A stretch of DNA of 32,000 nucleotides from Candidatus Saccharimonadota bacterium (GCA_965231145.1 OZ246420.1:990001-1022000), one strand, 5' to 3'. Positions 1,536 to 26,174 are shown, counted from the first letter of the stretch. Notes: generated by a model from the sequence alone, not told the origin. Numbers and translations: made by a program.

Positions 1536-2114
1536 TTAGAGAGGACGCAAAATATTGCGTCCGTACAATTCTCGCCATTTCATCGGATTTTCCTGGATAT
1601 ATTTTTTTATACGATCATATTCGATTTCATTTCTAATAATATGGTCGTGGTAACGACCATGCCGGGCGAATGAAATATGATTATTTTTCGCGTATTTCAT
1701 TACACCAATTTTAAACCCACGAATAATTGCTCACAACGATCATGATGCACATTCATATTTATTTTTTTCTCGGTATTGTACGGACGCATTATCATGCGTC
1801 CTTTTTATTTTATTTATTTTTTTATCATTGGACGCAAAATATTGCGTCCCCACATCGCACCTATTTACTATCAATATCCCATGGACGTGATTGGGCATAC
1901 AAATAAATTCATCTATTTCAACATACGGATAATGGGTCGGAATATCCTTTCGACACTTCCAAGCCACGCGACCCAATTCATTCAACCTCATCACCCCATT
2001 TTTCACTTTTCAAAAATAATGCTGCATATCCTTGCAGCATATCGTGACGAAATAGATAGCGGACGATGAGTAATCGTGTCGCTGGGCTCTGGGTGATGTA
2101 CGATGATGCATCAT
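1536..2114 (-). CDS. IS200/IS605-like Y1 (HUH) transposase, REP-associated tyrosine transposase (RAYT)-like, ~192 aa
   Basis: Reading through in-frame TGA at 2010-2012, 1740-1742 and 1731-1733 gives MMHHRTSPRAQRHDYSSSAIYFVTICCKDMQHYFGKVKNGVMRLNELGRVAWKCRKDIPTHYPYVEIDEFICMPNHVHGILIV...SLGAIIRGFKIGVMKYAKNNHISFARHGRYHDHIIRNEIEYDRIKKYIQENPMKW. This contains the HUH motif (PNHVHGIL) and the Tyr-containing C-terminal segment (RYHDHIIRNE) typical of this family. The real stop is TAA 1536-1538. The start at ATG 2112-2114 is my choice and is uncertain. Confidence 0.8.
1543..1562. repeat. Hairpin GGACGCAAAATATTGCGTCC (8-bp stem, 4-nt loop), copy 1
   Basis: Read directly and identical to the 1830..1849 copy. 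It lies inside the last codons of the transposase gene, where it is translated as GRNILRP. Confidence 0.7.
1782..1801. repeat. Hairpin GGACGCATTATCATGCGTCC, variant copy
   Basis: Read directly. It has the same GGACGCA/TGCGTCC stem as the 20-mer at 1543 and 1830, with a different loop. It is translated inside the transposase gene as RTHDNAS. Confidence 0.7.
1830..1849. repeat. Hairpin GGACGCAAAATATTGCGTCC, copy 2
   Basis: An exact repeat of 1543..1562, translated here in a different frame as GTQYFAS. Confidence 0.7.
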
Positions 2115-2214
2115 GACTATAAGCAAACAATACCATCGTCCATCGTATGAAATATAGCATAGATGAATAACGAATCTGCCTCTTTCGCACGAATAATATC
2201 ATTTTCTCAATATC

Positions 2215-2242
2215 AAAAAAAACGCCTCCGGAACTACCGGAG
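2215..2242 (-). terminator. Rho-independent terminator of the 2262..2750 gene
   Basis: The minus-sense sequence reads CTCCGG-TAGTT-CCGGAG followed by GCGTTTTTTTT, beginning 20 nt past the TAA stop. Confidence 0.7.
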
Positions 2243-2261
2243 TGCGTTGGGTTTATAGACA

Positions 2262-2750: not shown

Positions 2751-2863
2751 ATTGTATCAATTTAGGTGTGTTTTAATTTTATGTTTGCTTCCGTATTTTA
2801 CTTCTAGAAGACCATTTGTCAATACTTATTTTAGGACAAAAAGAGCCTTTTTGGGGCAATGCT

Positions 2864-4489
2864 ATGCGGAAAAGTGCTTTTGACTATACTTATACTATGG
2901 CGCAAGCTCCGATGCATACGGTGAGTCAGTATACTGCCCCGAAAGGCCCTCAGGAAGGGAAAGCGCTTTCGCTATTGAAAGAAAGAACAAAAGCAGAGCT
3001 TTTTGATGCAATTTCAGCACAAAATGTCCTCCATGGAGGTTGGCAGAAGAATGTAGAAGAATGGTACAACGAGAAGGTAGAAAAAATGATCGCAAGAGGC
3101 AATGATAAAGAGACTGCAGAAAAACTAGCAACGAAGCAAATACAGAAAGTATGGGCAAATGTATGGAGAGGAAAGCTTGCAACACCAGGGACAAAACAAG
3201 GCGATGGATATAAAAATGAGTGAGATAGCGATGGAGAAGGCGCAATATTTCTCATGAAGAAATTTATATTTGGAAATAAATCTTCATTTGTGAACTATCT
3301 CAGTCACGAAGATATAAAAGCGCATGCGCACTCCACCGACTTCAGTGACAAAAATGTACTGAGAATGTTTCTTGATGGCGGAGAGGTGCCAGGATTTACC
3401 GTGGAAAGCAAAGAAGGCAAGGGATTAAAATCTCCATGGAAACAAGCGAAGGTGATCGCCGATCATCATCCACATGGACCAACCTCCACTACCTGAATGG
3501 TAGCTAAATTATTGGAACTCACTCACATTATTCCTGCAAAAGAAAAAAAATATGTAGAGAAATTTGTAAAAACTATCGATGTAGTAGACTCCTTTTTGAG
3601 TAAGGCAGGAAAGGTTTTCGATGTAAAAAAAGAATATGCAAAGACGCTTATCGCTTTCAGTTATTCTCTTGATAGTGAGACACTCTATGAGCTATGTACG
3701 AAGCTTCCCGACAATGTCTGACCATTTTCACCAATCCCTGATGACATCCTCCAAAGCATGGAAGTTATTCCTAAGAAAAAGAAGACAAAAGTAAAACTAC
3801 AAGAGCTTGTTGAGAAAAAACAAAGCAATATTGATGCGTGAGCTATTATGGTAAAAGAAAAATTAGATGAAAAAAAGTTTGTCACTGTTGAATGAAAAAA
3901 ATTTATTATATTTTGACCCAACGACAGCATCCCAACTGACGTAAGGGCAATGCTCAGCGCTGAGTATGGTTGTGGGACTATAGCAGTATTTAAAAATGGT
4001 GATATGATCATCGTACATGATGAAGGGATTCCACAGTCCATGAGAAACCAAAACCTTTGACTAATAGTGCGCGATGTTATTCTTGTTATGAATGCAAACA
4101 CAACAAACAATAATCATATCGAAAAAGGGAAGCAGCTCTATAGTTCGATCCCCGATGGCGAATGAAAGAACTATCTTATGGGCCTCCTCGGCGGCGAAGC
4201 TAAAGAAAAAGTAGAGGTAGAAGCAGAACAAGCTCCGGAAGAAAAGAAAGCTGAACCGGTGGAACCGAAGAAAGAAATTTCTGCTCCTCTTGTTACACCT
4301 CCTCAGGCAACCCAAACTCCAATTGCTCCAAAGAGCGAAGCTCCAGTTCCTCGGCCGTTAGAGAAAAAGAAAATAGCCTCATTTGCTCCGGTCGCAAAAG
4401 AGATGAAAGATGAGATGAAAAAACTTGGCAAAGACATGAAAGAAATGTGGTCTGGCTTTCTCGATATTTTCCGCAGAAAAAAGAAATAA
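2864..4489 (+). CDS. Hypothetical 541-aa protein with a possible degenerate DHH-phosphoesterase-like core, a Lys/Glu/Pro-rich tail and a C-terminal amphipathic helix
   Basis: Track ORFs 2816..3223, 3254..3496, 3497..3721 and 4178..4489 are all in one frame. They are joined by eight in-frame TGA codons (3221, 3494, 3719, 3839, 3893, 3914, 4058, 4163), and I found no TAA/TAG until 4487-4489. The start could be TTG 2816 or ATG 2864. The segment KVIADHHPHGPTSTTGMVAKLLE (DHH at 3461-3469) resembles DHH motif III plus the following helix, and AHAHSTDFSDKNVL weakly resembles motif I. Confidence 0.6.
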
Positions 4490-4557: not shown

Positions 4558-6237
4558 TTACGTTGTAGTACCAGCATTATTATTTGTACCGGGAGCATTA
4601 TTCACAGCAGGAGCTGGAGCAACACTCGCAGTTGGTTGTGGTGGTCTTGTGGCAGGCAGATTCAAGCGAAGATTTCTCTTAAAGATGTCGAGAAGAAGTG
4701 CTTTCTCAAGCATATCTTTCACGTCTCCTTGAGGAAGTTTCCTGACAAGCTTGTTTGCTTTGTCTATCTCGTGGCCGACCATATCATAGGTCTTCACAAC
4801 GAGAGCTTCTGCTTGCGTGATTCTATCAATCTCCATATCATGGAGAATCTTAATATCATCATCTGTTTTAGCCATGAGCATTTTAGCCATGATAGGAGCG
4901 ATGTCCAACAACATGAGGAAGAGGAATATAATCCACTCTTCAATCCTTATGCCGGGATATTTTTCGCCTGCCCTTTCCAGAGCATTCATACGAGCGCCTA
5001 AGCCATCAGCTTGGTTATTAGCCCACTGTGCTTGTTTCTCGTCGTATTCCTTATTCATTTCTTGCTCTTCTTTTTCCAACTTGGCTATTGCCTCATTGTA
5101 AAGGTCGGTCTGATATTTCCAGAACTCTTCCTTCTTACGTGCTTCGATACCATGGCCAGCCTTACGACCGCCAATAGAAGTATTTACTTCAGTATTATAC
5201 TCTTCACGAGCTTTATCTACTGGTATCTTAGCCTCTTCTTTTCTCTTACGCAATTTCTCTGTTTCAGACTTCCTCTCTTCATCTATTGCTTTCAGAGCAT
5301 CAGCTTTTTGTTCAGCTAATTCCTGCTTTATTTCCTGGTTAAACATCGCCATTTCCAATGGCTTTGCCAGGAATAATGCAATTACCCACGCCATAGCGAT
5401 ACGGATGAGAGCGATACCCCATTGCTTTTTAGGACCCATAGTAGCGATGATCGACCTATCGACTAAGAATACCACAATAGGAAGTATAATGCTTCCAACA
5501 ACAGTACCAAACTCTGACTTAAAGGTAACACTTATCATATAAGGCACAGACAGCAACGATACGAACAATGGAACAAACAGTGTTGATCCAAGAACCGAAT
5601 ACTTTATGCGATCTACTTTAGAAAGATCATCGTAATTCTTGCCTACAAAACGGCACAGAAGTTTAACGGTCATTTCTCTTTTTGCCACTACCATATGGTA
5701 GATAGAACCAGTAATGAACGCCATAGTAATCCCTTTTATCCAGCTTACAGGAAGCTTGGTATTGAGGAATACCATGGTGGTACCAAATGCAATAAGCGTC
5801 ACTACCCAACCGACAACTTCCAGTCCGACATATTGCTCCTTGCGGGTAAATAGTCTTCTGTTATTCAGTTGTGTGAGAACACGGTAGATTGCACCAGCAA
5901 AGGTTGCAGCTACCAGCGCTATCAAGTAATTTTTCCAGTTATACGGATCGCGTAGAACGAGAATACTAAATGTAGTGATCACTTCGACCCAGCCGAAGAT
6001 CTCAACAACCATAGGTTGCTGAGCATTAGTAAATACCCTTTTATTATCAACGTACATTTTGTTGATCATATGGTATATTACTGCTGTGAAACTCATAACT
6101 ACTATCGCCGCAAGATAACTTTTCCAGTTGCGATAATTATTTACGAGCACGATACTGACGCCGAAGGTCAGTATGATCAACCAAGCGAGAAACTCCTCTG
6201 CTTTGGATTGATGATCTGTTACAATAATTTTTTTCAT
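4558..6237 (-). CDS. DUF4407-like membrane / coiled-coil protein with an N-terminal extension of repeated transmembrane modules, 559 aa
   Basis: Intact ATG..TAA ORF without TGA. The segment DRIKYSVLGSTLFVPL...FLVDRSIIATM...IRIAMAWVIALFLAKPLEMAMFNQEIKQELAEQKA, then a long charged coiled coil, then GLGARMNALERA and a final TM helix, matches my memory of the DUF4407 layout. The N-terminal ~190 aa are extra TM hairpins. Confidence 0.6.
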   Translation of the reverse strand: MKKIIVTDHQSKAEEFLAWLIILTFGVSIVLVNNYRNWKSYLAAIVVMSFTAVIYHMINKMYVDNKRVFTNAQQPMVVEIFGWVEVITTFSILVLRDPYNWKNYLIALVAATFAGAIYRVLTQLNNRRLFTRKEQYVGLEVVGWVVTLIAFGTTMVFLNTKLPVSWIKGITMAFITGSIYHMVVAKREMTVKLLCRFVGKNYDDLSKVDRIKYSVLGSTLFVPLFVSLLSVPYMISVTFKSEFGTVVGSIILPIVVFLVDRSIIATMGPKKQWGIALIRIAMAWVIALFLAKPLEMAMFNQEIKQELAEQKADALKAIDEERKSETEKLRKRKEEAKIPVDKAREEYNTEVNTSIGGRKAGHGIEARKKEEFWKYQTDLYNEAIAKLEKEEQEMNKEYDEKQAQWANNQADGLGARMNALERAGEKYPGIRIEEWIIFLFLMLLDIAPIMAKMLMAKTDDDIKILHDMEIDRITQAEALVVKTYDMVGHEIDKANKLVRKLPQGDVKDMLEKALLLDIFKRNLRLNLPATRPPQPTASVAPAPAVNNAPGTNNNAGTTT

Positions 6238-6476
6238 TGTATAAAGAGATGATTTTTTGTATTGGTGAGTTCAATATTGTTTAGATAATTTTTTATGAAG
6301 AAACACATGTAGTCGCAATACACGTGTCAGATCTGTTAATGTTCATCCCTCTTCTAAACACAGTTTAGAGAAGGATAATATATTATATTCACAGATCGAA
6401 ATAAGTCAAGTTTTGGGGCATTTTCCACAAAATCGTCAAAAGATTGTTAATAAGTCGTTTTTAAGGATTTTTTAAG

Positions 6477-6901: not shown

Positions 6902-7885
6902 ATGGTGTTGATTGGAAGAAAATTAGTGACAGATGGTACGAAACTATCTGATAAACATAGTGTGTTTGAAGACCTCTATAAGAAGCAAAAGCAGGCAATA
7001 TGGTTTCCAGAGGAAATTAACATAGGACTCGATCTCGTAGACTATAAAGGAATGAAGGAAGACGAGAAAACACTCTTTCATGAACTTATCGGATACTTTG
7101 TGACATCAGAGCTTCTCGTACAGAACGTCATCGGTGAATCATTCTATCCATACGTGATCGATGCAAGAGCAAAGATGGCGATGACCGTTCAGATGTTCAT
7201 GGAAGATATTCACTCTGACTTCTTTGAAATGATCCTTCATACGTTTAGCATGAACCGTGATGAGATCTACAGCAAAGCTTCTGAGCATCCAATCATGAAA
7301 GCAAAGCAGGAGATGATCGCTGCAGCAGCAAATCGTATCAGCGTTTCAGCATCAGGAGGTGTAAATCCAGACACCCTCGAAGGAAAGAAAGCTATTTTAA
7401 ATGCGATTCTTATTAACAATATCGTTCAGGAAGGAATCTTCTTCTACTCTGCATTTGCACTCTACTTCGCGATCAGAGAAACAGGAAGAATGAAAAATGT
7501 CTGTAATGGTATGGATCTTGTGCTCATCGATGAAAGTTTCCACCTCAAGATGGGAATAGAAATGATCATGACGATGATTGAAGAAACTCCAGAACTTGTA
7601 CAAGACGCAGCGTTTGTTGAACATATCAGAAAGACAATCATCGAAGGAGCAGAGCTTGAAATGCAATTCCTCCAAAGCCTTCTTACGAACCGCATGATTT
7701 TCGGTGTTCACTACAATGAAATGGTTGATTATCTCAAATATATCGTAGACCGCAGACTCGAAGAACTTGGGTTTGGACCTCACTATCTTATCGAAGGAAA
7801 TCCATTGAAATTCCTACAAAAACAAGACCTTAAAACGCTCCAAAATTTCTTCGAAATCACACCAACACAATATACTAATTTCTAA
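6902..7885 (+). CDS. nrdB: Ribonucleotide reductase small subunit (R2), class I, with R2c-like metal-site features
   Basis: Ferritin-like R2 motifs are present: FVTSELLVQN, FMEDIHSDFF (ExxH), VQEGIFFYSAF, IDESFHL (ExxH) and a C-terminal ...TQYTNF tail. It lies immediately upstream of nrdA. The stop is TAA 7883-7885. I prefer the ATG at 6902 as start; the track start at 6872 is a TTG. Confidence 0.9.
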   Translation: MVLIGRKLVTDGTKLSDKHSVFEDLYKKQKQAIWFPEEINIGLDLVDYKGMKEDEKTLFHELIGYFVTSELLVQNVIGESFYPYVIDARAKMAMTVQMFMEDIHSDFFEMILHTFSMNRDEIYSKASEHPIMKAKQEMIAAAANRISVSASGGVNPDTLEGKKAILNAILINNIVQEGIFFYSAFALYFAIRETGRMKNVCNGMDLVLIDESFHLKMGIEMIMTMIEETPELVQDAAFVEHIRKTIIEGAELEMQFLQSLLTNRMIFGVHYNEMVDYLKYIVDRRLEELGFGPHYLIEGNPLKFLQKQDLKTLQNFFEITPTQYTNF

Positions 7886-7977
7886 AACATCTTAAAATTA
7901 AAAACCAAAATCTTAAAGCAGCTTTCAGTTTTAAGGTTTTAGTTTTACGCTATGCTCTCTTTATTATGTAACGCGTT

Positions 7978-10521
7978 ATGTATCCAATGGCAAAAGTAGT
8001 AATCCACCGCAATGGGCAGGTAGAACCATTTAAAACAGAGAAGGTTATCAACGCTATCAAAGATGTTATTGCAGATATCAAGATAGATGATCCCTTTGTG
8101 GCAATGTTCAAGATCATCAAGAACTTTGAAACAAGACTTGCTGATGAAGTAAAAACAGAAGAGATAGATGGACTGATCTTGAAAGCTATTGAACCGCTCA
8201 TTCCGGAAGATACTATTTACGACCAGATCGCTACAAGACAGCTTGTAAAGCTTATTTCTGAGGATGTAAACAAGAGATTTTCTAGTTTCAGCGAATACAT
8301 TTCGTTTGGTGTGGAAAACAAACTGCTCGATCCAAGGATGAAAGAATTTGATCTTGGCACGCTCGAACTGAACATCAATTACGACAACGATAAATATCTG
8401 AACTATTTCGGAACATCAACGCTTCAGCATAGATATCTCGTCAAGGACCACTCAAAGAACGTGCTTGAGAAGCCACAGTGGATGTGGATGCGTATCGCTA
8501 TGGGTCTCAGCATCCTGGAACCAAATAAGGAAGATTTTGCGATCAAAATTTACAACAAACTTGCAACTCTGAGATATCTTCATTCGACTCCAACCCTCTT
8601 CAACTCAGGAACAAATTTTCCTCAGCTTATCAGCTGTTTCATCGGAGTGATCGGAGACAGTATTGAAGACATTATGGCGAAAGCTACAGATGCAGCTCAG
8701 TATGCGAAGTTTGCAGGAGGAACTGCGATGTCCTTTACGAAACTCAGAGCATCTGGATCAAATATCAAATCTATCAACTCTGCATCATGCGGCCCCATTC
8801 CATTTATTAAAATCTTTGACACAACTGTTGCATCAGTTGCAATCGGTGGAAAGAGAGCATCAAATCTTGTGGCATATCTTGAGCCATGGCATTATAACAT
8901 CGAAGAGTTTCTTGACCTCAAAGAGACCAATGGTAATGAAGCTATGAGAGCAAGAAAGCTTAATACAGCACTCTGGATACCGGATGAATTTATGGAAAGA
9001 GTGATGAGAGATGAAGACTGGTATATGTTCGATCCAAAAGAAACTCCAGAACTCGTAGAAACATGGGGACCAACATTTTCTCAGCACTATAAGAGCTATG
9101 CAGAAAAAGCAGAGAAGGGAGAAATGAAAATGTGGAAAAAGACAAAAGCACAAGAACTCTACAGAGAGATGCTTATCAGGATGGCGAAGACTGGTAACTA
9201 CTGGATCAACTTTAAAGACAGACACAACGAAAAGAGCCAGGCTCCAAGCTACGCCTTGATCCACTCTACAAACATGTGTACAGAGATTTCTATTCCAAAT
9301 CGCGAAGACAGTACAGCAACATGTACACTTGCATCTCTCAATCTCAGCAGATTTGTCATGCACGACAAGCTCGCAAACGTGAAAGAGATGACACTTGAAC
9401 AAAAGCTTGAGTGTATCAACTGGAAAGATCTTGTAGAAACAGCGCAAATAGCAACACAGGCTCTCGACAATGTTATTGAGCTCAATCACTATGTATCAGA
9501 AACTTCAAAGAAAGGAAGCTTTGACCTCAGACCTCTCGGACTTGGAGTTATGGGATTTGGTGAAATGCTCCTCTATCTCGACATTGCATATGAACACGCT
9601 GACGCTCTCGCACTTTCAGACAGGCTTGGTAGTACTATCTATAATGCAGCACTTGAGACATCGAAAGAGCTCGCAAAGACAAGAGGAACATTTGCTGACT
9701 ACGACAGTACAAGATACTCATATGAGCCAAGAAGAAACATTCTCCTTCTTGCTATCGCTCCTACAGCGACTATTTCAAACATTGCAGGAACATCGAGTGG
9801 TATCGAAACATTCTTTTCTAATGTATATGCAAGAGAGACTATCTCTGGTAAGTTCACTATCGTAGTGAAACATCTTATCGAAAGACTCAAGGCTGCAGGT
9901 ATGTGGGATGAAGATATCAGACAGAAAATCATGGATGCACAAGGATCTGTGCAGCATATCGGAGAAATAGATAATGCGTTTAACAAGCAGGTATTTAAGA
10001 CAGTATATGAGTGCTCTCCGGGTTCTCAGATCGACGTTGCGGCTGTATGGCAGAAGTATGTAGATCAGGCTATCTCAAGAAATCTCTACGTGAAAGAGCA
10101 TGAGAGAAGCAGCCTCTTCGACATCTATATGTATGCGTGGAAGCAAGGTCTTAAATCAACATACTACTGCTTCATCGAAAAGAACATTCAAGGAGAAAAG
10201 TATACAGAAAACGTAAATAAGCGTGGTGCTCGTGTAGGATTTTGAGCTGGTTCTCAAGACGCTCCTGCTGCTACAGCTACAACATCTGCAGCGCCAAGAG
10301 GTTTTGGAGCTGTGACGACAACACCCGTTGCTGCCGCTGTTGTAGATCTTACCTCTATCGACTTCAAAAATGTTACTAACGAACAAAGAGCCGCTATCGA
10401 GGCAAAGATGAGAGCAGAAAAGGGTGATGAATATGTAGAGAAACTCAAAGCAGGAACACTTTACGGTGACTCATGCCCTGTTGATCCATTTGAAAAAGTA
10501 ATGTGTGAAGGTTGCCAATAA
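7978..10521 (+). CDS. nrdA: Ribonucleotide reductase large subunit (R1), class I, with N-terminal ATP-cone, 847 aa
   Basis: An ATP-cone is present (VVIHRNGQVEPFKTEKVINAIKDVI), as are the catalytic-core motifs (NLCTEI-like STNMCTEIS, and PTATISNIAGTSSGIE). Track ORFs 7978..10245 and 10312..10521 are in one frame, joined through TGA 10243-10245. The extension ends in ...CPVDPFEKVMCEGCQ, the C-terminal redox cysteine pair expected for R1. Confidence 0.92.
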
Positions 10522-10527
10522 ACACAC

Positions 10528-10556
10528 AAAAAAACATCCCGTTTGGGATGTTTTTT
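10528..10556 (+). terminator. Rho-independent terminator after nrdA
   Basis: AAAAAAACATCCC-GTTT-GGGATGTTTTTT has a 7-bp stem and a T-run, starting 7 nt past the TAA. Confidence 0.8.
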
Positions 10557-10591
10557 AATTCAAAATTCAAAAAGCACAATTCACAATTAAG

Positions 10592-10625
10592 CATGAAGAG
10601 ACGTGCCGCGGCACGTCTCTTCATG
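10592..10625. repeat. 34-nt perfect palindrome CATGAAGAGACGTGCCGCGGCACGTCTCTTCATG
   Basis: Read directly. It starts 3 nt beyond the TAG stop (10629-10631) of the giant minus-strand gene and has no adjacent U-tract. Confidence 0.7.
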
Positions 10626-10628
10626 TAT

Positions 10629-13600
10629 CTATTTCTTAAACACATTAAGCGTCAGAGAGAGATCCTCTGCTCCCGGAGGGAGATTTGTGAAGATAGTAGG
10701 ATTTGCTTTGATGACGATAGCACCGTCGTTTAGCAATCCATCACTAGCTCTCTTATCAAACCAGTTTTCTACAACCGATCTTCTTCCCTTCACGAGATCA
10801 CTAAGATCTGCTCCAAGAAGGATACCATGGATAGTCAGCCTTCCACCATTGATCCAAGGTTTATTGAGATCGCTGTTGAACGCTGGCTGTCCGTCACCTT
10901 CTGCCTTGATATCTTTGAGTCCGATAAAGATACCATGTACTTCCTGATCCTGATTATTTGTCTTCGCATCTCCTTGCGCAGAGAAGATGATATCACCATC
11001 TCTTGCAATAAACATACCATTTGGATTTTGCTGCAGATCACCCTTGATAACGATGTCTCCGTTAATCACGATAAGCGTAAATGCTCATCCCTTGTAACTC
11101 ATCTTATCAAGAACAGTGATCATACCCTTTGTTCCAGCAGGAGTCTTCGCATCTATGACAAAGATATTCTTACTTGGAACTTTTGATACAACTGCTTTTT
11201 GGATAGTCGTATTGTCAGGGAGCTTATCCGTAATGACATCTGCTTTGACTGCGAGCGCAATATACTTATCTACCATCTTGGTGATAAGATTGATATCAAT
11301 ACCTCCGAGCGTAAATGGCTTGAGAGCTTGGATAAGCTCTGATACCGAGAGTACCATTGTTGTATCCTGTCTCTTATATGTATCAAGATCCGGTGTTGAC
11401 GAGAATGTACCACGCGGAGTTCTTGAAACTGCATACTGCTTTGTTACTCCGAAGTTCATCTGACATACTCTATCATATGGTTGGATAGCAGCGCCATTAC
11501 AGAGTTTTCCACTCACCACTTTCATAGTGATCATGTACTCACCGAGTCCAAGATAGTAACTTCCTGTGATCTGTTTTGCTCCAGCTCCACCAGGATATAT
11601 TTCAAGACCATATGCTATCTTCGCTGCGTTAAATGCTGTATCAATAAGCGGCAATTGCGGGTTATCATAACACGGCTGTGTCCATGTGATCACATGACCA
11701 TTTGGTCCTTGGAGATCAAACTTACACTGAAGAGAAGTAAGATTTACTCTTACATCTTTCGGCTGCGTCGTACACGATGATGTGACAAGAAGACGACCAG
11801 AACCAGCAGTTGTATAACCATATTCCATATCCCACCGATAAGGCATATATTCACCTACGTTAATAGCTGGTGGGTCTATATAACTACACTTCACTTCTGC
11901 GGTCATACCAGGAGGCTGATCTCTGAACTTACAGTCAGGACCACATACTCTTCCTGCAGGCACACCTGCTGGTTTTATACCAAGCGCAGCATTACCTGGA
12001 TCACATTGTTCACCTCTACTTGGCTGATAGAGACCATCTCCACAATATGGATATGATCCACCACCACCTCCTCCTCAACCACCACCTCATCAGCAGTTTG
12101 TACAAGGAACAATAGGTCATACACTTGCTTGAGATTCATCGTCTTCTACTCATGTATTTCTTCCTCTATTACACGGATTACTATCTCTATCTTTTACTCC
12201 ATTTGTCGCACTCATACCAATATATGAACACACTTCTGCATAGTTAGTTTCAACTACAGTACTTCTATAAGTACCCTGGAAAGTAATAGTGATAGAATCA
12301 CCAGGATTGAGTTGTGGAAGATTATAAAATGTAATATCTTTTGCCCCACTCAGGATCACATTCATCCCCGACGGTCACGTCGGATTTCCAAGATAGTCTA
12401 TACCCGCTGGAAGATAATCCTGTACTGTGTAACCGTTTACTGGCGATGGCACATCAGATTCATTGGTTACTCTGATAGTATAAGTCACTGTTTCACCATT
12501 TGCTGCAACCGATTTATCAATCATTTTTTGCAGGTTGATGTCAAAAAAACCTGTAGCAGAAACATCTCCTGTAGTAGTCGTTGTTGCTTCACCACAGTTA
12601 TTATTGTTGTAGTTATTGTCTCCTTCGATACAGACGACATTACGGTAAATATGCCCGCTAGCAAATTGTGTGACAATCTGTGCCTGGATAGAAACAAGCC
12701 CGCTATAACCTGGAGCCATATTAGTAAATCCAGTCCATATGAGAGTCTGGCCCGAAGCAGGCGTTCCGGCAACGATCGGATGACCAATATTGATTCCTGA
12801 AAGAATCGTTATTGATCCTGAAACATATGCTGTTCCCACTGGAAGCGAGTCAAGAAGCGACCAATTTGGTGCGGCGATTTGTCCGCTATTTCCATATCTA
12901 ATCGTATACGTTACAATATCTCCTGAGATAACCAATGGTCTGTCGATCACCTTGCTTGAGTAAAGATCGTAACAGAGCACGAGAAATTGTGCATTATCCT
13001 GAGCTGGAGCTGCGTTCGTAGCAGTAATTCTTCCGAGATTATCAACAATCTGATTTACACACACTGGCACAGTCGATCTGATTCTTACAAGGATTCTAAT
13101 AATACCTTGCTGACCAGGCAGAAGTGTTCCAATATTCCATGTAAGTGTCTGACCAGCTACTACTGAAGGCGAAGGGATCGCTGAAACAAAAGTAAGATCT
13201 GCTGGAAGTGTATCAGTCAACACAACACCTGTTGCTGTTCCGCTTCCTGAGTTACCGTATGTGAGTGTATAAATTGCATATCCATTTGGCACATATCCGC
13301 CAGTACTTGCTGCCACATCTTTTTGGATGTAGAGCTGTGGATTGAGCGGACACTGAATAGGTGACGTGACAAATGCACTATTATTAAACAGTGTGATTTC
13401 TGGAGTCACTGTCGCGATACTTACATCATTTCTCACTGTCACACAATTCGGTGTATTTCCTCTGATCCTTGTTGTCATCTGGATGACACCACCCGCATGC
13501 CCCACAATAGTTCCGAGATTATATCTTATGGTTGTTGTTCCATTTGCATTTGGTGTTACTGATGTCGGCGCCGGGATACTACTTATAAAATCAATTCCTG

Positions 13601-15077
13601 TACCCAAAATATCAGTGATGATCACACCTGTGGCAGCACCTGTTCCTATATTATTATAGAGAATCGTATAGTTAAGAATTCCACTTTGTACGTTACTTCC
13701 TGTGACTGATTTTGCGATCGCGAGATCGGGCGGCAGCACTACAGGAGGACACTGGATAGGCGATGTTACCATCGCATCGTTGTTCAGTGAATTTGAATCG
13801 TTCGTTGCAGAAACATTTACCCTATTGATAACTGTTGAACAGTTTGGAACTGTCAGTTTAATCTGCGCCTTAAAAACAATGGTACCTACTGCACCCGGCG
13901 CTACATTTCCGATATTCCATTTGATGGTTGTTGTTCCATCGACATTGAGCACAACAGAACTTGCTCCTGGAAGACTTGTTCCCGGAAGGAAAGTAAGACC
14001 TGTTCCAAGCGTATCAGTAATGACTACTCCGTTTGCAGTTCCTGCACCGAGGTTTCTATAGGTAATAGTATATGTTACTTCATTTCCTTGGATATTTGAC
14101 CCAGTAACTGATTTTGTCACAGTCATATCTGACGGTGGCGGAGGCGCTACCGGCGTACACATAGCAGAACATGTACTTCCTGGAGCTCCGTTCAAAGAAC
14201 CAAGGTCACATATTTCTGAAGCTGAACCGATATTGAATGATCCTACGTCAACAATACCATCACCACACCAGTGTACAGTCACGTTCATACATTCGTATGG
14301 TACGCGAGACTCTGATCCCCAACTTATCGCAGCCGAAGTCACTGATGATGTGCTCAGCACATAATGCGTTGGCCAGATCGGTGAAGATGTCGTCCATGAT
14401 GAACTGATATACCATGCATTGAACACGGCTCATCCATCTGTCGGACTAGCTGTAGGATACAACCAATAGTTATTTGTACCTGCAATCTTTGCTGAAAAAG
14501 GTCTATAGGCAATTTCGTATCCGATCTGAAATGTTCTCGATGCGATACTGTTGCTATCTGGCGCCGAAACCAAAAGCGGATGACTTTCTACTGCTCTTAC
14601 CCAGACGTCTTTCGGCGCGATCTTTGATTGTCTGTACCGTGCCATAGTAGTGTTAAGCGGCTGCGTCGTTGTTCCCACAAGCTTGGTGAGCATATTTTGA
14701 CCTCCGGCAGGAAGAAAGTATCTTACTTTTGTTCCTGGGAAGCCTGACTGTCTTCCTCAAATAAGATAGACTGGCGTTGTTCCTCCATTCATGACAAAAT
14801 TATCTCTTGCATAGTAGTTTGTACCAAGGTCTTTGATACCATCACCATTCAGATCATGAGCGAGATAGTAGTCTCTTGAGACATTTGCCTTCGTACAGAC
14901 TGATGCAGGAAGCGCAGAAGTTGCAGTTTCTTGGTCAAACAAGAGATTGTTCGTTGAATCAACGTATCCATTTTGGTACGTGTAACTTGGTCCAGGAATA
15001 ACTGCATATGCTGAAGAGATAAACCCTAGTCAAAGGGTTATCGCCATTCAGAACACTACTTTCAGCAAGTATTTCAT
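10629..15077 (-). CDS. Giant secreted surface protein, 1482 aa: signal peptide, 5 DUF11-type repeats, two CGDG...CD Cys-rich motifs, poly-Gly linker, uncharacterised C-terminal domain
   Basis: Six track fragments (14757..14942, 14430..14693, 12375..14426, 12150..12365, 11085..11963, 10629..11069) share one frame. They are joined by 11 in-frame TGA codons, and I translated every gap and found no TAA/TAG. The N-terminus MKYLLKVVFGMAITLGLGFISSAYA is signal-peptide-like. There are five ~125-aa repeats with the DUF11/TIGR01451-like signature (for example KSVTGSNIQGNEVTYTITYRNLGAGTANGVVITDTLGTGLTF). The motifs HWCGDGIVD and YCGDGLYQPSRGEQCD are also present. The stop is TAG. Confidence 0.85.
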
Positions 15078-15111
15078 GAAAAGTACAAAAAAAGGGTAAA
15101 TTATATGCAAA

Positions 15112-15139
15112 ATACTAGTATTTAATTGCTATTTGTCAA
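15112..15139 (-). promoter_or_regulatory. Candidate sigma70-type promoter in the 66-nt spacer between the two giant genes
   Basis: The minus-sense sequence has TTGACA (15139..15134), a 16-nt spacer and TAGTAT (15117..15112). This is a pattern match only. Confidence 0.3.
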
Positions 15140-15143
15140 GGTT

Positions 15144-18100
15144 TTATGGGTCTTGGCTGCCATTGTTTCCGGTTCCACCAGAGCCAGTATTTCCACCAGG
15201 ATCTTGATTTCCATTATTACCCGGATTAGTACTTGGACCATCCGTACCGTCAACAGGATTTGAACCTGGTGTTCCATCAACTCCGTCAACAGGATTTGAA
15301 CCCGGTGTTCCATTGCCTCCTTGTCAAGCACTTCCCCCACTATTTGATCCTCTTGTTGAGCTTGAACGGGTTGTTTGTCCGCCCGCCATGATACCAAGTC
15401 CAATCTTAAAAGTGTTTACTGTAAGGTAGTTATTTGTGTACTCTACACCCACATATACTCCTTCTTTCTTGTAGCTCACAATCATCTCACCAAAGCGGAG
15501 CATATATGCTTCATTTGCACATGGACCATTGAGTACTTTTTCAAAGACTGATGGAAGTTCTATCTTCACACCATTAATCTCGATCACCTTATTTTTAATA
15601 AGTTCTTTCATCTGCGCATCATCGAGGTGCACATTGACACCATTAGCCTTAAGTGCTTCATTGATCTTCTGATGTTGAACTTTAAACTCGTTAGTTCCTT
15701 GAAGAATATCAATAAACTTATCATATACTTTCTTTTCGCTTGAGGCGTCTTTCTTAAATTCTTTTCCATTTCCTGTAGCGATATCGACCTCCCCAAATCC
15801 AATCATTCCAGTCGTAGGAACAAGACCTCTTCTGTAGTAACCCACGAGAGCTACGGCGTTTCACACTGGCACATCACCATATTTCTCTTTCTTCCCATCA
15901 ACATCCTTTGCATCATCATAAATATCATCAAAAGCGTGAGCATCGATAACCACATTACTTGCCTTAAATGCATCTATATGTCCTCTTCTGTTTTTCAAAA
16001 GCGTTCCTACTGACTCAGAACCAGCATATCATTTTCATTTTCTAATTGCTTCTACTCTTGCTGAAAGCGAACCAGCCTGAAGGAAGACATTGACGATCTG
16101 TCTCTTATGCTCATCACTCTTGTCCCACATATCTTCAAATTCACGCCACTGCTCTTCATTTGCAAAAAGCTTCAAATATCTCGTGATGATTGTACTTATC
16201 TTCAATCTAATCTTCTCATATATTTCCGGCGAAGCAGTTTTTCTCGTTAATGCCACGAACTCACCGAAAAGAGCATTATACTTTTCTTTATTTATATTGT
16301 CTGATTTTGTGGCATTGAGAAATTTGTCCCTCGCATCTGAACCTCTCAAAATTTCATTAATAAGAACTTTATCAGCCATAGGAATATCTGGGCCAAAGTC
16401 GAGCGATATTCTTCTTACTTCTACTTCTGGATGTTGATCACCTTCAGCAAATGTTTCTGGCTTACCATTGATAGATTTGTTGACTGGAATCTTTTTCAAG
16501 TCAGCATCTTTCTTCCTATCATAGCCAAGATATATCTTCTCTTTTGTTGTATAGGCATTGATAAGTCTGCCTGCAAAGACACTCATACCCTTAGGAAATA
16601 CGATACGATCACCTGCCACAATAACTGACGATGGATCTTTCACAAACACATCACACTGATCATAGAGCGGTCTTTCGTCTTTATTACGCTTAGATTTAGC
16701 TATCGTAATTGTTCCTTCTGTGCCCGACACCTTGAAGTCTTCTCCAAGCCAGTACTGAAGTTTCTCTACAGCACTCATACCGTTCACATCAGAATTATCA
16801 AAATTTCTGAATGCATTCAAGCTATCAAGATTTGCTTCTTTCTTTTGCTTATCGTACATATCCGTCCATGTCGTTGATCTTCCATAGATAGTGATTCCTA
16901 TAAAGATTTTGATAATTGGTACACTGAGCACAGTTCCAATACCTACTTCTACCGAAAGATCACCATGCCCCTTACTTTCCTTCAATGCATGATTTGTCCA
17001 GTTCGATATATATGTTTCTGCGATCTCATCTGTTGTCAGATTAAATGTTTCCATACCATCTACGATATGTTGTGCAAGCTGTCTGATGTATTTTCTATTT
17101 TCAGGATCAGCAGAAGGAAGTTGCTCCAAAAGTATTTGTTCAACCTGCGGCGTCTTCATCCCAACCTTCACATCTTTCAGTACATCTTTTATAACGCGCT
17201 CCATATTTTGCGACTGACGTTCAATACCAGCCATAAGATTGCTTCCTACATAGAAACCAGCTCCAAAATAAACTGGGCTTGCTTCTACAAACATTCCGCC
17301 CTTCCACATTGGTGTCGGAACAAGTGTCGACTTAAGCTTCTGTCCATTGAGTACCTGATCAACACTTAAGCGAGTAAATGGCACGATGTTTGCTATACCA
17401 ACATCCGCATGCACTGTTACATCTTCACTCATCTGTATATCCATACCAAGATCTATCACAAAGCCTGGTTGTCCTGACGTACTCATACCAAGTCCAATAC
17501 TCATACGCTCAGAGATATCTCCTGCTCTTCCCATATCGATAGATACTCCCGCTCCAAGACCTACAACATTTACTCCACTATTAGTCACTCTATTTGTCGA
17601 CGAAACAATATTACCATTTTTATCAACAACGTTTTCTGTATGTACGTCTGTCTTAGAAACCATTAAAGCTCCTCCTGCAATTTGTAATGCAGCATAGCGA
17701 TCAAGTTTTCTCTGTATCTCTTGTCTATCAGCAGCACTCAAGGTTGAAGAGGTTGCTTTTGCAGCAGCATCAATAGCTGCTGCTGTTTTCTTACGAATCT
17801 CTTTACCATATTGTTTTTCTACAATATTTGCAGCGCTTTCCATTTGCTCCTCAGACGTCATTTCTTTTTCATAAGGAAGCTTCTTCATAGGCTCAGTAAG
17901 CCAATTTTTCAAAGAGACTACTGTCATATGAGGCAATACTTCATAGAGAAGATCTCTTACCATCTGGAGCGTATCTCCATCATCAAGAAGCTCTGAAAAT
18001 TCTGCAGCATTATTCCATCTTGGAAGGTCATTTCTGCCTCTTGCACGCATCATTCTTGAAAGTCTCTTATAAAGAGCAGCAGAGAACTCATCTTGTCCCA

Positions 18101-19163
18101 TCATTTTAATGGTCGAATCAATAGTCTGCTTCCACTCATTTTCTGTCATAATGACTTCGTCTCTATTATCTATCGTCTTTCTTTGTTTCTTTTTTTCAAT
18201 CTTACGATTTTTCTTTTCAAGCTTCGCCATACCTGTTAAAGAGACATAGTCCTGGATGAAATTTTTCGATGTAGAAATATCATCTGGGTGGTTATACTCT
18301 TCTGGCATCGCATCCCATCTACCATGTCTTTGCAAGATGTTTTTTATATTTTCTGCCCAGTTACGACCTTCGTTCATTGCATCATCATATGCAGTCTCTG
18401 CACTATGAAGTGCTCTAGCTCCCGATTCATTACCTTTTTCTCGTCTTCATTTTCTTGCAGCCGTCATGGCTGCCTGCTTCTCAGGCATGGTTGCATTGAC
18501 ATAACTCTTCGCAAGCGATTCTTTCATGTCATCTGGATCTAATTCTCCTTTTTCTATTGCCCATTTAATAATATCCTTCCCGTTGTCATCAATTTCATCA
18601 ATCTTGTAGATCGCATCCATAAAATCTTTCTTTATATCTTCTATCTCTCTTTGTTCTTTCTGTCTCTTATTAAATTTTCTTTCCTTTCTTTCATTTTTAA
18701 AATCTGTTCCATTATTTCCATTTTCATTAAAGTCAGAGAAATTCTCTGCTTGCTTTTGAAATTTCTTGAGGTTTTTCTTTGTGTCTTCTATGGTAGCGGC
18801 TTCTTCTATCATTTGAAAATCATAGAGATCATTAAGATCAGAAATTAAGTTAAGCGCATCTCTAAATTGGTCTTTCTTCTCCTTTGATCGGTTGACCTCT
18901 TTGCTGGCAGTTTCTAGCTTAATTTTCATGGCAAGTCTGTCAGCTTTATTATCAATATCAAACTGCTGATCATCTAAAACATCCGCAAATTGCTGAAAAA
19001 GCGCATTGTCCAATGCCTCGTTTAGCTTCTTTTGATAATTTTTATATTGCTCTTTGGTGAGCACTATATCTTTCGCCTCTTTTCAGGCTTTTCACTCGAT
19101 ACGAGTACCTCCTTCGCTACCACGAGGATCAAAAAATACCCTAGCTCTATATAACATCGTCAT
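15144..19163 (-). CDS. Giant hypothetical protein, 1339 aa, no recognisable domain: charged coiled-coil-like N-terminus, Gly-rich beta-like centre, Gly/Asn/Pro-rich repetitive tail
   Basis: Track ORFs 18447..19064, 16035..18377 and 15324..15845 are in one frame. They are joined through in-frame TGA at 19092, 19083, 18447, 16035, 16029, 15861 and 15324. An upstream in-frame TAA lies at 19209-19211, and the first ATG is at 19161-19163 (MTMLYRARVFF...). The real stop is TAA 15144-15146. I see no signal peptide. Confidence 0.8.
15247..15318 (-). repeat. Tandem 36-nt coding repeat (2 copies) giving GTPGSNPVDGVD / GTPGSNPVDGTD
   Basis: CCGTCAACAGGATTTGAACC[T/C]GGTGTTCCAT is repeated at 15247 and 15283, and about 32 of 36 positions are identical between copies. 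It lies inside the C-terminal tail of the 1339-aa protein. Confidence 0.8.
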
Positions 19164-19413: not shown

Positions 19414-20820
19414 CTATTTTCCGCCAAATACGACCCTCAGCGTTGAGATAAGTACTTGTAAGTCCATAGCCAATGACCAATGCTGGATATAGTAGAGTTC
19501 GAGTTGTGCTTCCTGTTCAAAAGGAAGTTTATCGCGACCAAAGACCTGTGCATAGCCGGTAATTCATGGTTTTGCAGCAAGCAGTCTTCTCATCCATGGT
19601 TCATATTTTGCCACTTCATCGGGAAGATGAGGCCTTGGTCCGACAAGCGACATAGTACCGAGAAATACGTTGATAAGTTGAGGAAGTTCGTCGAGCGATG
19701 TTTTGCGTAATATCTTTCATATAGTCGTTACGCGTGGATCGTCTGCTATTTTTGGAAGAATATCATCTCTGGTATTTTTTGTTGCGATAAGGTCTCTATA
19801 AATCTTCTGGGCATTTTTTCCTCCATATTTTTCGCCCGTACTGAGATGAGTATACATGCTACGAAATTTGATAAATCGAAAAAGTTTTCCCTTTCTTCAT
19901 ACCCTTTGCTGAAGATAGAAGACAGGACCTGGAGTATCTGCTTTTATAAGAAATGCGATAAGTAAGAATAATGGAGAAAGAAAAATAAGCCCGAAGAACG
20001 AAGCAACGACATCACATATTCTCTTTAAGACTCTGAGCCACCCATCGAGAGGCGAGCTCGTATACGCCCATCCTACGACTGGTCCGATGCGTTCGGGCTG
20101 CGCAATAAGATCTTCCAGAAAATAACTCTCAGGGATATGATAAAATGTTTTTCCATGATTACGAGCATGATCAGCAATCGTTTGCAATGTATTGGTATCG
20201 TACGAACCTACTGCCATAACAATGTCGATACTATCCCAGCGACGAGATGAGTCATACTCTTTTTTCATAATTGACACCAACTCATAGATGCGATATCATT
20301 CAATCTTTTCGACAAACTGCTCGTATTGTTCTGGAGTATTGTAAATAACGAGAATTTTGTAGGGATGTTTTTTTTCTAAGAAGCTATTGAGATTATTCCA
20401 AAAAATATCAAAGATACTGAGCAATACTAAACCACAGAGCGCTGACCATAAAATTACAAATCTTGAGATACCATCGGTAAAGAGAAATCCATTTCCAAAA
20501 AGAGCGAGAAATGTCATACTGACAAGCCACCAGACCCATGCAAGCAAAAATTTCTTATAGTAACCATGAAGAGGTTTTTGTAATTCATACACCCCAAGAA
20601 GAAACGCTGCAATTAAAAAAATAATGACAGCAACAAGAGCAAATCTACTTGTTTCTATCAGGTTGAATGCCGGTATTCTTAGCTGGAGCCAAGGGATAAG
20701 GTCAGTTGACTGACGGATTGTATATGCTATCCGGAAAGCTACTAAAAGCAGCAAGAAATGAATCAATGGCCTCGCAAGACGAAGAAGCATCTTATATGAT
20801 GAGGCAAAGCTCTTTTTCAT
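19414..20820 (-). CDS. Polyprenyl glycosylphosphotransferase (WbaP-like bacterial sugar transferase), 468 aa
   Basis: It has N-terminal TM helices. After read-through of TGA at 20296, 19897, 19717 and 19564 the C-terminal domain reads ...[26 protein letters not shown]...[44 protein letters not shown]...[42 protein letters not shown], the Bac_transf (PF02397-type) signature. The stop is TAG 19414-19416. I chose the ATG at 20818-20820 as start; the track GTG is at 20826. Confidence 0.88.
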
Positions 20821-22505: not shown

Positions 22506-23063
22506 TTAGTTCATAGAGAAAGTGCTAAATGATGCATCTATCTGATCTTTATGACTCTCAAACTCATCTGATGGAGCGAGATAGGTCATAACATAGATAG
22601 TATTATCTTTCAATGCATATACCTGCTCCCATGAAAATTGTCTATCAAGATATCTACCATGAAAAAGAATTTTCTTTGCTGGTTGTCCATCTATCGTCGT
22701 CGATTCGATGGCATCTTGTGTGAAGTCTATGATCACCTCTTTCAGTTGTGCTATCGTCTTATCCACATATCCATCCAGTGTGAGGTTTTGATCTATCTTT
22801 TCTTTTGTCACATTGAAGCTTGGCGTATATTCCTGGATATTTGGTGACGTTACTGTCGCAACCAGATATGGATTCTCTCCTCATGTCATAAGGTTCCAGC
22901 CTTCTGGATACGCAAATGAAACTTGACTTACGGGATCAGTGTAGACGTTTTTATAGAACATTTTATTCCCATAGCGAAGCCAAAGTATAGCCCCTACCAC
23001 AACAAGTGCGGCTAACGAAATCAACAGCCATGAAAGCCATTTTTTCTGCATGTTTTGTTTCAT
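22506..23063 (-). CDS. Membrane-anchored hypothetical protein, 185 aa (PsbP/DcrB-like fold is possible)
   Basis: Track ORFs 22881..23063 and 22506..22811 are in one frame, joined through TGA 22881-22883. It has an N-terminal TM anchor (WLSWLLISLAALVVVGAILWL) followed by VSFAYPEGWNL. The stop is TAA. Confidence 0.65.
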
Positions 23064-23984: not shown

Positions 23985-26174
23985 CTATTCTGCTTTCAAT
24001 GGACTTACTGCCGGAGGCGGCACACCGTCTGTTACAGGATATGCGACTGGTTTAGCTGGGAAATTAACCTTTATTCCCTGAAGATTATTTTGAGAGAAGA
24101 GATGTGCAAATTGCGTATTGATGAAATAATAATTGCTTCCCATATATCCTACTCTTGGCATAAGAGAGCTCAGAAGCCATGGATCTATAGCACCCGTACT
24201 TGTTGTTGTTCCATAATAAGCATATGGATTTGTTAATATGTTTTTATAATCCATAGAGATAGTTTCTTTTGCTCCTTCGGTACTCAATGTTCGTCACTTT
24301 ATACCTGCAAACTGAGTCAATGATGTTTCCATCGGATAACATTCTTTTCTGATTTCTGCACCATTGGCACCATAAACGATACTACACTGCTGCGTTTTTG
24401 CTGTTGTTGCAAGTACAATAGGAAGCAACAGTTCTTTTGTTGTAGAGTTGAACACAAACATCCTTGGATTATGTAATGCATCCGATTGACTACCTTGTTC
24501 TCCAAATGTTTTTGTCCATGCTTGTGTTACGGAAATATTTCCCGCTCTGTCTTTCTGAGAGAAGTCTGCCTTGTACAGATCAAGCTTTATACCTCCTTGT
24601 CTTTCATTGCCATTTGCGTCTATCGATGTATTATACCCAAGACCTATAAGATATTGTACATTCCCTTGTCTTGGTCAAAACGGATGAAGATATGTGCTGT
24701 ATCCAGGCATCTTAAGTTGCCCAACGATAGTTGGTTTTGCACTGTTACTCAAGTCGATAACGAACAATGGATCTATCTGACGATATGTTACAAGATAGAG
24801 ATAGTTATCGATAAATCTTGTTCCGTAGAACTGTTCTCCTGGAGCGATGTTTTCTAGTTTACCTGCGATTTTTCCTTGTGCATCTATCGAATATACATTG
24901 GTAGCGATTCTACCGGCAGCATTTGCTGTATCAGAAGTAATAATTCTGAACGTTCCGTTGGTGTCGTCCATGCTATACTGGCTATATGTCGTTCCCTTTA
25001 CCGCTGTTGAATAATTATATGTGAGTGCTGGCAATGAAAATTGATGTATAGTGGTATAACTACCCTGTGACCACATTGGCATAAGACATCTCGCATTGAT
25101 CGGACAGCTCATCGGCGTAGAGACGTATGATGGAGCCGTAAGATAGAGTGTGCTTTTTGTAATATGCACCTGTGAAGAGCTTCCAACTATGGTCTTTATC
25201 GTAGGAGCTACACGTGGAGTATCGAGAGAAAACGTAATGATACTCGATAGAGAAAGTCCCCATTGAGGATATGAAGATGATTTTTTATCGGGTTTCATAT
25301 ACAATACATTTGTACAGTCCACTTGCGTGGTGTTTTTTACTGTCGTAAATTTCTTTGTTCCGTTTTTATAGGTAATCGTTGTAGGCTGAAGTGAGGTCCA
25401 ACTTGGTAAAGCATCACGCGCCGTGAAAGTGAAATCTGTTGGCTTGATAGACTGCTGTGCAGGATCTTGCATCATCTTATCGCGCATCATGTAAACTGGT
25501 CCTCGCGTAAAAGACTGAGATGTTACCAATACTAGTTTATTATTTACAAGTCTGCTTTCCTGCAAGTACCCATCATACTCATATGCACTTTCGAGCTGCG
25601 GAGTTTTTGGATTTGCGACATTATAGATCATGATAGAAGTTTTTTGATCGCGCGCGATGATGCTTGTCTGATACGCCACATATGGAGCACTCTTTGCACC
25701 AAGCACGATTAACTTCCCGTTATTGAGGAAAAGCTGAGCATTCCACATGTCCTGTGGAAGTGAGATCGTTGCCTCCTTTTTCCCTGCAGCAGAGACAATA
25801 TGTATCTCATGATTTTGCTGGGCATCTACATAATAGATATATTTTCCATCATTCTTCAAAATTTCTGGTTCTTCTACTCCTGACTTTTGATTGTTTGTCG
25901 CAGAGAAATCGCTTCCTCCGCCGCCTCACATACCATTTGCAGAAACAGCTTCTTTTGTCATAGCATCATTCATCATCACGCCACCTCTCACCGGTCCAAA
26001 ATATCCTCCGTTCCAATTGATACTAAAATACTCCTGTAACATACTCTCTACTTCCTTACACGACTTTGCCTGCGTCATTGTAGGATCCCACGACGGTGTA
26101 CTGGTCGCTGCAAATGCGCTTCCAGCGCTTAAAAAAATACAGAAGATGAGCACCAAGGATCAGAGTTTTTTCAT
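23985..26174 (-). CDS. Secreted beta-propeller domain protein (COG4880 / PF09826-like), 729 aa
   Basis: Track ORFs 25926..26156, 24675..25859 and 23985..24287 are in one frame. They are joined through TGA at 26160, 25926, 24675 and 24294, and I translated the gaps. The N-terminus MKKLGSLVLIFCIFLSAGSAFA is signal-peptide-like. YGTRFIDNYLYLVTYRQIDPLFVIDLSNSAKPTIVGQLKMPGYSTYLHPF is the hallmark of the secreted beta-propeller family. Confidence 0.8.

Follow-up and report, generated by a model that had tools for sequence, protein, structure and literature searches.

We know of no account of the molecular means by which Candidate Phyla Radiation (CPR) bacteria that use genetic code 25 hold their hosts and feed, and the question raised by the locus described here is whether its two adjacent giant genes, A and B, take part in this and whether they do so together. 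The genes lie in a stretch of 32,000 nucleotides (nt) from a genome deposited as Candidatus Saccharimonadota bacterium (GCA_965231145.1 OZ246420.1:990001-1022000), which is called the window below. The reading that we favour, at a probability of roughly 0.55, is that of a clade-restricted cell-surface locus in which B is a fibre-like surface protein and A is most likely an internal structural or scaffold protein. B is of a known kind, fibrillar-adhesin-like, with uncharacterised end domains, and is written in code 25. The locus offers two conserved and probably highly expressed candidates for host holding and feeding, and correct gene models make A and B searchable in metaproteomes and available as imaging targets in cultured Absconditabacteria.

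When only TAA and TAG were treated as stop codons, two long frames were found on the minus strand, separated by a spacer of 66 nt (15078-15143). The coordinates, lengths and counts (Table 1) agree exactly with the initial annotation, which had described two co-oriented giant genes holding 18 TGA codons and had warned that pipelines using translation table 11 would shred them. Under that table the longest intact piece is 803 codons in A and 684 codons in B, and the public protein entries for orthologues of A and B are fragments. The TGA codons of the real genes in the window (mutS, nrdA, nrdB, a sugar transferase gene, A, B and others) were mapped onto seven orthologous loci, where they were partnered by Gly 78 times, by TGA 32 times and by Trp not once. 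As the partners are Gly or TGA and never Trp, TGA is read as Gly, and the code is code 25 and not code 4; the source belongs to the code 25 group (Gracilibacteria/Absconditabacteria). No tRNA genes were found in the window, hence a tRNA-Gly(UCA) was not seen. A run of 12 Gly residues in B is encoded by TGA TGA GGT GGT GGT TGA GGA GGA GGT GGT GGT GGA, and in the poly-Gly runs of the orthologues TGA and GGN interchange, with L005 and L014 carrying TGA at other positions.

Wherever a related contig covers A or B, the gene is a single open frame. When L005, the closest relative, was used for comparison, the ratio of non-synonymous to synonymous substitution rates (dN/dS, Nei-Gojobori) was 0.105 for A and 0.049 for B, the neighbouring transferase gene gave 0.038, and no segment of 100 codons exceeded 0.25; purifying selection acts over the full length of both A and B. 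The possibility that their continuity is an artefact of sequencing errors, or that they are decaying pseudogenes, has nothing in its favour other than the 18 in-frame TGA codons and is virtually excluded by the TGA alignments with their Gly or TGA partners and no Trp, the exchange of TGA and GGN in the poly-Gly runs, the frames intact in 10 genomes and the dN/dS of 0.05-0.10.

The antisense strand of B is also open, for 1431 codons (10734-15029, plus strand), as is that of nrdA for 869 codons (7945-10554, minus strand), under either code 25 or code 4, because B and nrdA are nearly without the Leu codons TTA and CTA (2 of 100 Leu codons in B and 0 of 64 in nrdA). These shadow open reading frames (ORFs) run in register with the real genes, and a code-25 gene caller could mis-call them.

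The product of B, which has 28 Cys residues, is a secreted Cys-rich surface protein of the adhesin type. All of the parts attributed to it by the initial annotation, namely a signal peptide, five DUF11 repeats, two CGDG...CD motifs, a Gly12 run and a C-terminal region belonging to no family, were found (Table 1). The N-terminus (MKYLLKVVFGMAITLGLGFISSAYA|VIP) is signal-peptide-like, with a Lys-rich n-region (MKYLLK) and a 16-residue hydrophobic core before AYA|V, and a start of this kind is common to all B orthologues. The five CLIPPER repeats occupy residues 317-438, 451-571, 585-700, 708-833 and 846-971; PF01345 was matched in five stretches with 188.4 bits (gathering score 24.6), and NCBIfam returned the DUF11-type repeat TIGR01451 (143 bits) and an isopeptide-forming fimbrial domain. 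Repeats 1-4 contain one Cys pair each, and repeat 5 has Cys950/Cys969. Among solved structures, repeat 1 is nearest to the CLIPPER crystal structure PDB 9IFR, but the match is weak (E 0.4); K322, D355 and N418 of B align with its isopeptide Lys, catalytic Asp and Asn. These three columns are retained in repeats 2-4, and repeat 5 is without the Asn. At least four CLIPPER domains of B keep the residues for a predicted intramolecular isopeptide bond. The second CGDG...CD motif, when scanned alone, scored 21.7 bits against TIGR02232, above the cut-off of 20.8, and also gave a DUF4215 match (E 0.0034) below the gathering score.

The suggestion that B had gone undescribed was not borne out, as its core is a CLIPPER/DUF11 stalk (PMC12617251) with a precedent in Vampirococcus (PMC8080830). 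CLIPPER is the stalk-forming domain of fibrillar adhesins (PMC12617251), and Acinetobacter silvestris B9T28_05395 (9IFR; PMC12617251) is, like B, a long secreted protein with a tandem CLIPPER stalk in its middle. B shares with the CLIPPER adhesins the Lys/Asp/Asn triad and a disulfide-capable Cys pair in stalk domains 1-4. Unlike them, it carries no recognised tip (CshA-like or other) or anchor (OmpA-like, LPXTG), and it has instead an N-terminal domain that belongs to no family, a pair of Myxococcus-type Cys repeats, a poly-Gly hinge, a clade-specific C-terminal domain of 420 amino acids (aa) and Gly residues encoded by TGA. In Vampirococcus, a code-25 predator with a single membrane, a thick fibrous layer was ascribed to giant proteins including DUF11 ones, and giant surface proteins bearing DUF11 were proposed as host-attachment factors (PMC8080830). 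The DUF11/integrin/fibronectin-domain proteins of Vampirococcus lugosii (PMC8080830) share with B a code-25 episymbiont or predator group, giant size, DUF11 and a proposed part in building the fibrous coat and in host binding; the comparison rests on these traits, and the A family was seen only in about a dozen close relatives of the window. Chlamydia OmcB is a further Cys-rich, DUF11-related envelope protein, and residues 607-664 of B matched PF03504 (Chlam_OMP6) with E 7e-5, below the gathering score. OmcB is unlike B in architecture and size, and resides in a diderm envelope.

The N-terminal domain of B (residues 26-262) found no match in Pfam, NCBIfam or PDB sequences, and the C-terminal region (475 aa) found no family in Pfam or NCBIfam. 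A profile of the C-terminal domain was likewise null against PDB sequences, and an AlphaFold2 (AF2) model of this domain, built from the orthologue P0002, was poor, with a predicted local distance difference test score (pLDDT) of 55, and gave nothing in a Foldseek search of PDB. The same domain had no match in phage and defence sets (PHROGs, PADLOC and phage genomes). No SLH, CWB-type or other S-layer domain was found in B by Pfam or NCBIfam, and its C-terminus (...NLPPGAEDLSLTLNVFKK) contains no transmembrane (TM) stretch. The sole match of whole B to PDB, 7b7n, was tag-like and was discarded as spurious. The initial annotation had held that assignment of both proteins to well-characterised families would overturn its view; such an assignment was obtained for the B stalk only, and A and the B C-terminal domain matched no such family.

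Comparison of the B orthologues revealed that conservation is highest in the C-terminal domain and second Cys repeat, with 63-77% identity (63-76% for the C-terminal domain alone), and that the stalk is 47-69% identical. For the N-terminal domain, identity is 43-64% in L002 and L010, and up to 90% when L005 is included. In L004 and L006 this domain is replaced by an unrelated one of ~200 aa, and the stalk and C-terminal domain stay homologous, a pattern in the alignments that indicates domain swapping at the putative tip of B. The poly-Gly hinge varies in length from 4 to 12 residues, and distant orthologues have an extra Cys-rich segment of ~100 aa before it. A pattern search with the C-terminal domain yielded no more than one GTDB genome and two contigs from JGI.

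In the most divergent relative, L008, the B-like gene is 2138 codons long (L008 13650-20066). It is followed, in the position of nrdA, by a gene (L008 20315-21814) for a protein with a C-terminal Por_Secre_tail domain (PF18962), which is unexpected for a single-membrane CPR lineage.

The codon bias of B (effective number of codons 41.3, with TTA and CTA nearly avoided) resembles that of nrdA and the ribosomal protein genes in the window, modest evidence suggesting that B is abundant or highly expressed. A TTGACA-N16/17-TAnnnT box was found upstream of B in 7/7 loci (the window and six orthologous loci), where by our own estimate roughly 0.01 per locus would be expected by chance, and it is therefore predicted that B can be transcribed on its own. 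B and nrdA converge on a perfect GC-rich hairpin (Table 1), which is likely a bidirectional terminator. A second hairpin is present at 10529-10556.

In contrast to B with its 28 Cys, A has 2 Cys. Neither a signal peptide nor a TM helix was found in A or in any of its orthologues, the N-termini of 10 orthologues are hydrophilic, and its lack of any recognisable motif, also noted at the outset, is matched by the searches. Used as a single protein or as a 20-sequence profile, A gave no match in Pfam, NCBIfam, PHROGs, PADLOC, PDB sequences or phage genomes, and Pfam searches with all 20 members of the A family gave scattered chance matches only. A prophage or defence origin was considered and rejected, as the PHROGs, PADLOC and tblastn searches (the last against phage genomes) were null. 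When 1.84 billion representative proteins were scanned exhaustively with phmmer, 29 matched A, and of these the ones inspected (the long and the best-scoring ones) were orthologues or table-11 fragments of orthologues; A therefore appears to be confined to a narrow clade of about a dozen close relatives. A word-indexed search with whole A was null, its candidates being swamped by low-complexity words, and a trimmed query recovered the closest relative only. Clade-restricted orphans without fold relatives are common in CPR genomes, and another is not surprising alone.

The charged first 500 residues of A are its most variable part, and the copies in the window and L005 carry insertions there. 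With the family alignment, AF2 modelled residues 240-1042 with partial confidence (pLDDT 68.5), predicting in order long helices, a beta meander, helices, a hairpin, a small mixed domain and a confident helical bundle (929-1042). The beta meander holds the motifs GxPGFAIDFGKD and IPFARVG, which are conserved in the alignments. Residues 734-760, conserved as GxGxLxxxPVxxAFxGxxxY, contain Pro and Lys and were modelled as a beta hairpin and not as a TM helix. The low-complexity tail (residues 1271-1339) differs in length and sequence among the orthologues. Foldseek searches of PDB and BFVD with the A model found nothing at E <= 1e-3; the best neighbours were the FMO sheet (E 0.06), porins (E >= 0.44, probability <= 0.41) and designed TM barrels, and such modelled resemblances count as no evidence. 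No significant sequence or fold match placed A among beta-barrel pores, porins or pore-forming toxins, and no relationship between A and the C-terminal domain of B was detected by hhalign.

A is the most divergent gene of its neighbourhood. Compared with L002, L004 and L006, identity is 30-33% for A, 54-72% for B, 70-73% for mutS, ~75% for the transferase and 80-82% for nrdA. In the C-terminal half, over residues ~930-1100, the orthologues of A fall into two sequence types: type 1 (...PSN..YNKAFGEF...) in the window, L005, L002, L006 and P0022, and type 2 (...KCIEATNQVQKKKYEYN...) in L004, P0018, P0019, P0029 and P0023. The types of A do not follow the types of the B N-terminal domain, a distribution that suggests recombination.

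Table 1. Coordinates of genes A and B, their parts and adjoining features in the window
Feature	Coordinates	Strand	Description
Gene A	15144-19163	-	ATG at 19163, stop at 15144; 1339 aa; 7 in-frame TGA
A residues 1-500	17664-19163	-	Charged, Lys/Glu/Asp-rich; long helices modelled from residue 240
A residues ~509-643	17235-17639	-	Meander rich in Gly and Ser, with about eight long antiparallel beta strands (AF2 model)
A residues 734-760	16884-16964	-	Sole hydrophobic segment, VEVGIGTVLSVPIIKIFIGITIY
A residues 1271-1339	15147-15353	-	Low-complexity tail rich in Gly, Asn, Ser, Pro, Thr and Asp
Gene B	10629-15077	-	ATG at 15077, stop at 10629; 1482 aa; 11 in-frame TGA
B residues 1-25	15003-15077	-	Sec-type signal peptide with cleavage-like site AYA|V; 2 Gly encoded by TGA
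B residues 26-262	14292-15002	-	N-terminal domain, no family
B residues 263-316	14130-14291	-	First CGDG...CD Cys-rich motif; TIGR02232 12.1 bits, below 20.8
B residues 317-971	12165-14129	-	Five tandem CLIPPER (DUF11, PF01345) immunoglobulin-like domains
B residues 996-1007	12057-12092	-	Gly12 hinge; three codons TGA
B residues 1008-1063	11889-12056	-	Second CGDG...CD motif, Myxococcus cysteine-rich acidic repeat
B residues 1064-1482	10632-11888	-	Clade-specific C-terminal domain, ends ...NLPPGAEDLSLTLNVFKK
Promoter-like box	15112-15139	-	TTGACA-N16-TAGTAT in A-B spacer; ends 34 nt before ATG of B
Hairpin	10591-10626		Perfect 16-bp GC-rich hairpin between convergent B and nrdA
Sugar transferase gene	19414-20820	-	Bac_transf (PF02397) polyprenyl-phosphate sugar transferase; directly upstream of A

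From the domain anatomy of B, a series of steps can be proposed. B would be exported by Sec, with its signal peptide cut after AYA, and would fold outside the cell with disulfides, for which its 28 Cys and the pair in each of CLIPPER domains 1-4 provide. The five CLIPPER domains would stiffen it, at least four of them with the Lys, Asp and Asn for an intramolecular isopeptide bond. The conserved C-terminal domain would probably hold B on its own envelope or assemble it, possibly with the involvement of a glycan begun by the upstream sugar transferase, the poly-Gly run would form a flexible joint, and the swappable N-terminal domain would be the distal, host-binding tip. A would most likely be a structural or scaffold protein that remains inside the cell or against the inner face of the membrane, because it is poor in Cys and lacks both an export signal and a TM helix.

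Several observations weigh against this arrangement. Neither an adhesive tip domain nor a domain for anchoring or sorting (LPXTG with TM tail, OmpA-like or archaeosortase signal) was recognised in B, the former in Pfam and NCBIfam searches, and as there is no known tip or anchor, the proximal end of B is assigned from conservation only; the model of the C-terminal domain is of poor quality, as noted above. The expression level of B is estimated from codon bias in a 32-kb sample. For A, the lack of a Sec signal may leave other export routes, and the beta meander together with fast divergence (~31% identity against 82% for nrdA) would fit a host-facing protein.

Of the alternatives, the first is that A and B are functionally unrelated, B acting at the surface and A being a clade-specific cytoplasmic protein with another role, with their order frozen in a narrow clade. 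This is possible, though we consider it somewhat unlikely. In all related contigs that extend past A on its upstream side, the sugar transferase gene comes directly before A, and the order transferase, A, B was found in 10/10 contigs that are long enough (L005, L014, L002, L004, L006, L010, L013, L015, L008 and the window; L009 stops just past A), so that the adjacency of the pair, put forward in the initial annotation as a check, holds throughout. The whole region of ~25 kb from rpsI to mutS is collinear in the relatives, with the order S9, adk, beta-propeller, CutA1, transferase, A, B kept throughout and nrdAB and mutS kept too in most contigs, and because of this the adjacency of A and B is weak evidence of coupling. 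B also has its separate conserved promoter-like box, and, judged by eye, the N-terminal types of B do not seem to change together with the variants of A. Three genomes have an additional small gene between A and B (L002 ~6090-6275, L004 ~8098-8285 and L006 ~7063-7250), which is absent in the window, L005 and L010. Its product is ~60 aa long with one hydrophobic helix (single TM), e.g. MKKRWPIILLGIAILLLVYAIDKY..., and in these three genomes the conserved promoter-like box of B falls within this ORF. Against the separation of the two genes, A and B remain adjacent in L008, the most divergent locus, despite its changed downstream neighbour, and no terminator-like site or hairpin divides them in the spacer. 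With the synteny weakened by collinearity, by the box belonging to B and by the extra gene in three genomes, a functional A-B module is a hypothesis. Coupling of the two would make them a new attachment apparatus; without it, B would simply join the known fibrillar adhesins and A the orphans of the CPR.

It is rather unlikely that B is mainly a structural envelope protein, a component of an S-layer or fibrous coat, and not a host-specific adhesin. The bias of its codons towards those of highly expressed genes, the combination of a conserved C-terminal domain with an adjoining glycan-initiating transferase, and the thick fibrous coat of relatives (PMC8080830) would all fit a structural role. 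No SLH or known S-layer domain was found in B, however, the swapped N-terminal domain resembles a specificity module, and the CLIPPER stalks described so far are mostly from fibrillar adhesins (PMC12617251).

The initial annotation had proposed a host-attachment or effector-delivery module formed by both proteins. The attachment part stands to the extent that B is a surface protein of the adhesin type; effector delivery found no direct evidence, and no secretion or pilus genes were found within the window. In the form in which B docks on the prey and A leaves the cell by a non-Sec route, its Gly-rich beta meander and hairpin entering the envelope of the prey to make a pore or conduit, this proposal is improbable. 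The adjacency in 10/10 contigs and a spacer free of any terminator-like hairpin agree with it, as do the fast divergence of A and the modelled eight-strand amphipathic Gly/Ser-rich beta meander with its conserved hydrophobic hairpin, and porins and designed TM barrels are among the best, non-significant, Foldseek neighbours. However, an export signal was found in no A orthologue, the Foldseek values (E >= 0.06, probability <= 0.41) are poor, and dN/dS is 0.1 with no positively selected segment. The promoter-like box belonging to B and the region-wide collinearity, which leaves adjacency with little weight, also speak against it.

Similarly doubtful is the more far-reaching idea that A founds a new clade-restricted family with its own fold and works with B as the inner or penetrating component of the apparatus for attachment and feeding in a code-25 episymbiont or predator. 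The part of A would then be that of a cytoskeleton-like base under the attachment site, or of a signal-less exported pore-former that inserts its Gly-rich beta meander in the prey envelope. The attachment organelle of Mycoplasma pairs a surface adhesin with large cytoplasmic accessory proteins (HMW1-3). The likeness would lie in a wall-reduced, host-dependent cell with a giant adhesin and a large, charged, helix-rich, signal-less protein that has a low-complexity acidic or Pro/Gly-rich tail, and it is one of functional analogy only, not of family membership.

Other genes of the same collinear block encode a Beta_propel (PF09826) protein of 729 aa that carries a signal peptide (23985-26174, minus strand) and a DcrB/PsbP-like protein (22506-23063, minus strand), both of them secreted or in the membrane. 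An ORF of 238 codons with 4 TGA and an HVHGILIV motif (1536-2252, minus strand) lies between mutS and the gene at 2777-4489. It was suspected to encode a Y1 transposase, but this was set aside as there was no Pfam match. In L002, mutS and the counterpart of the 2777-4489 gene adjoin, and the ORF thus looks like an insertion in the window genome.

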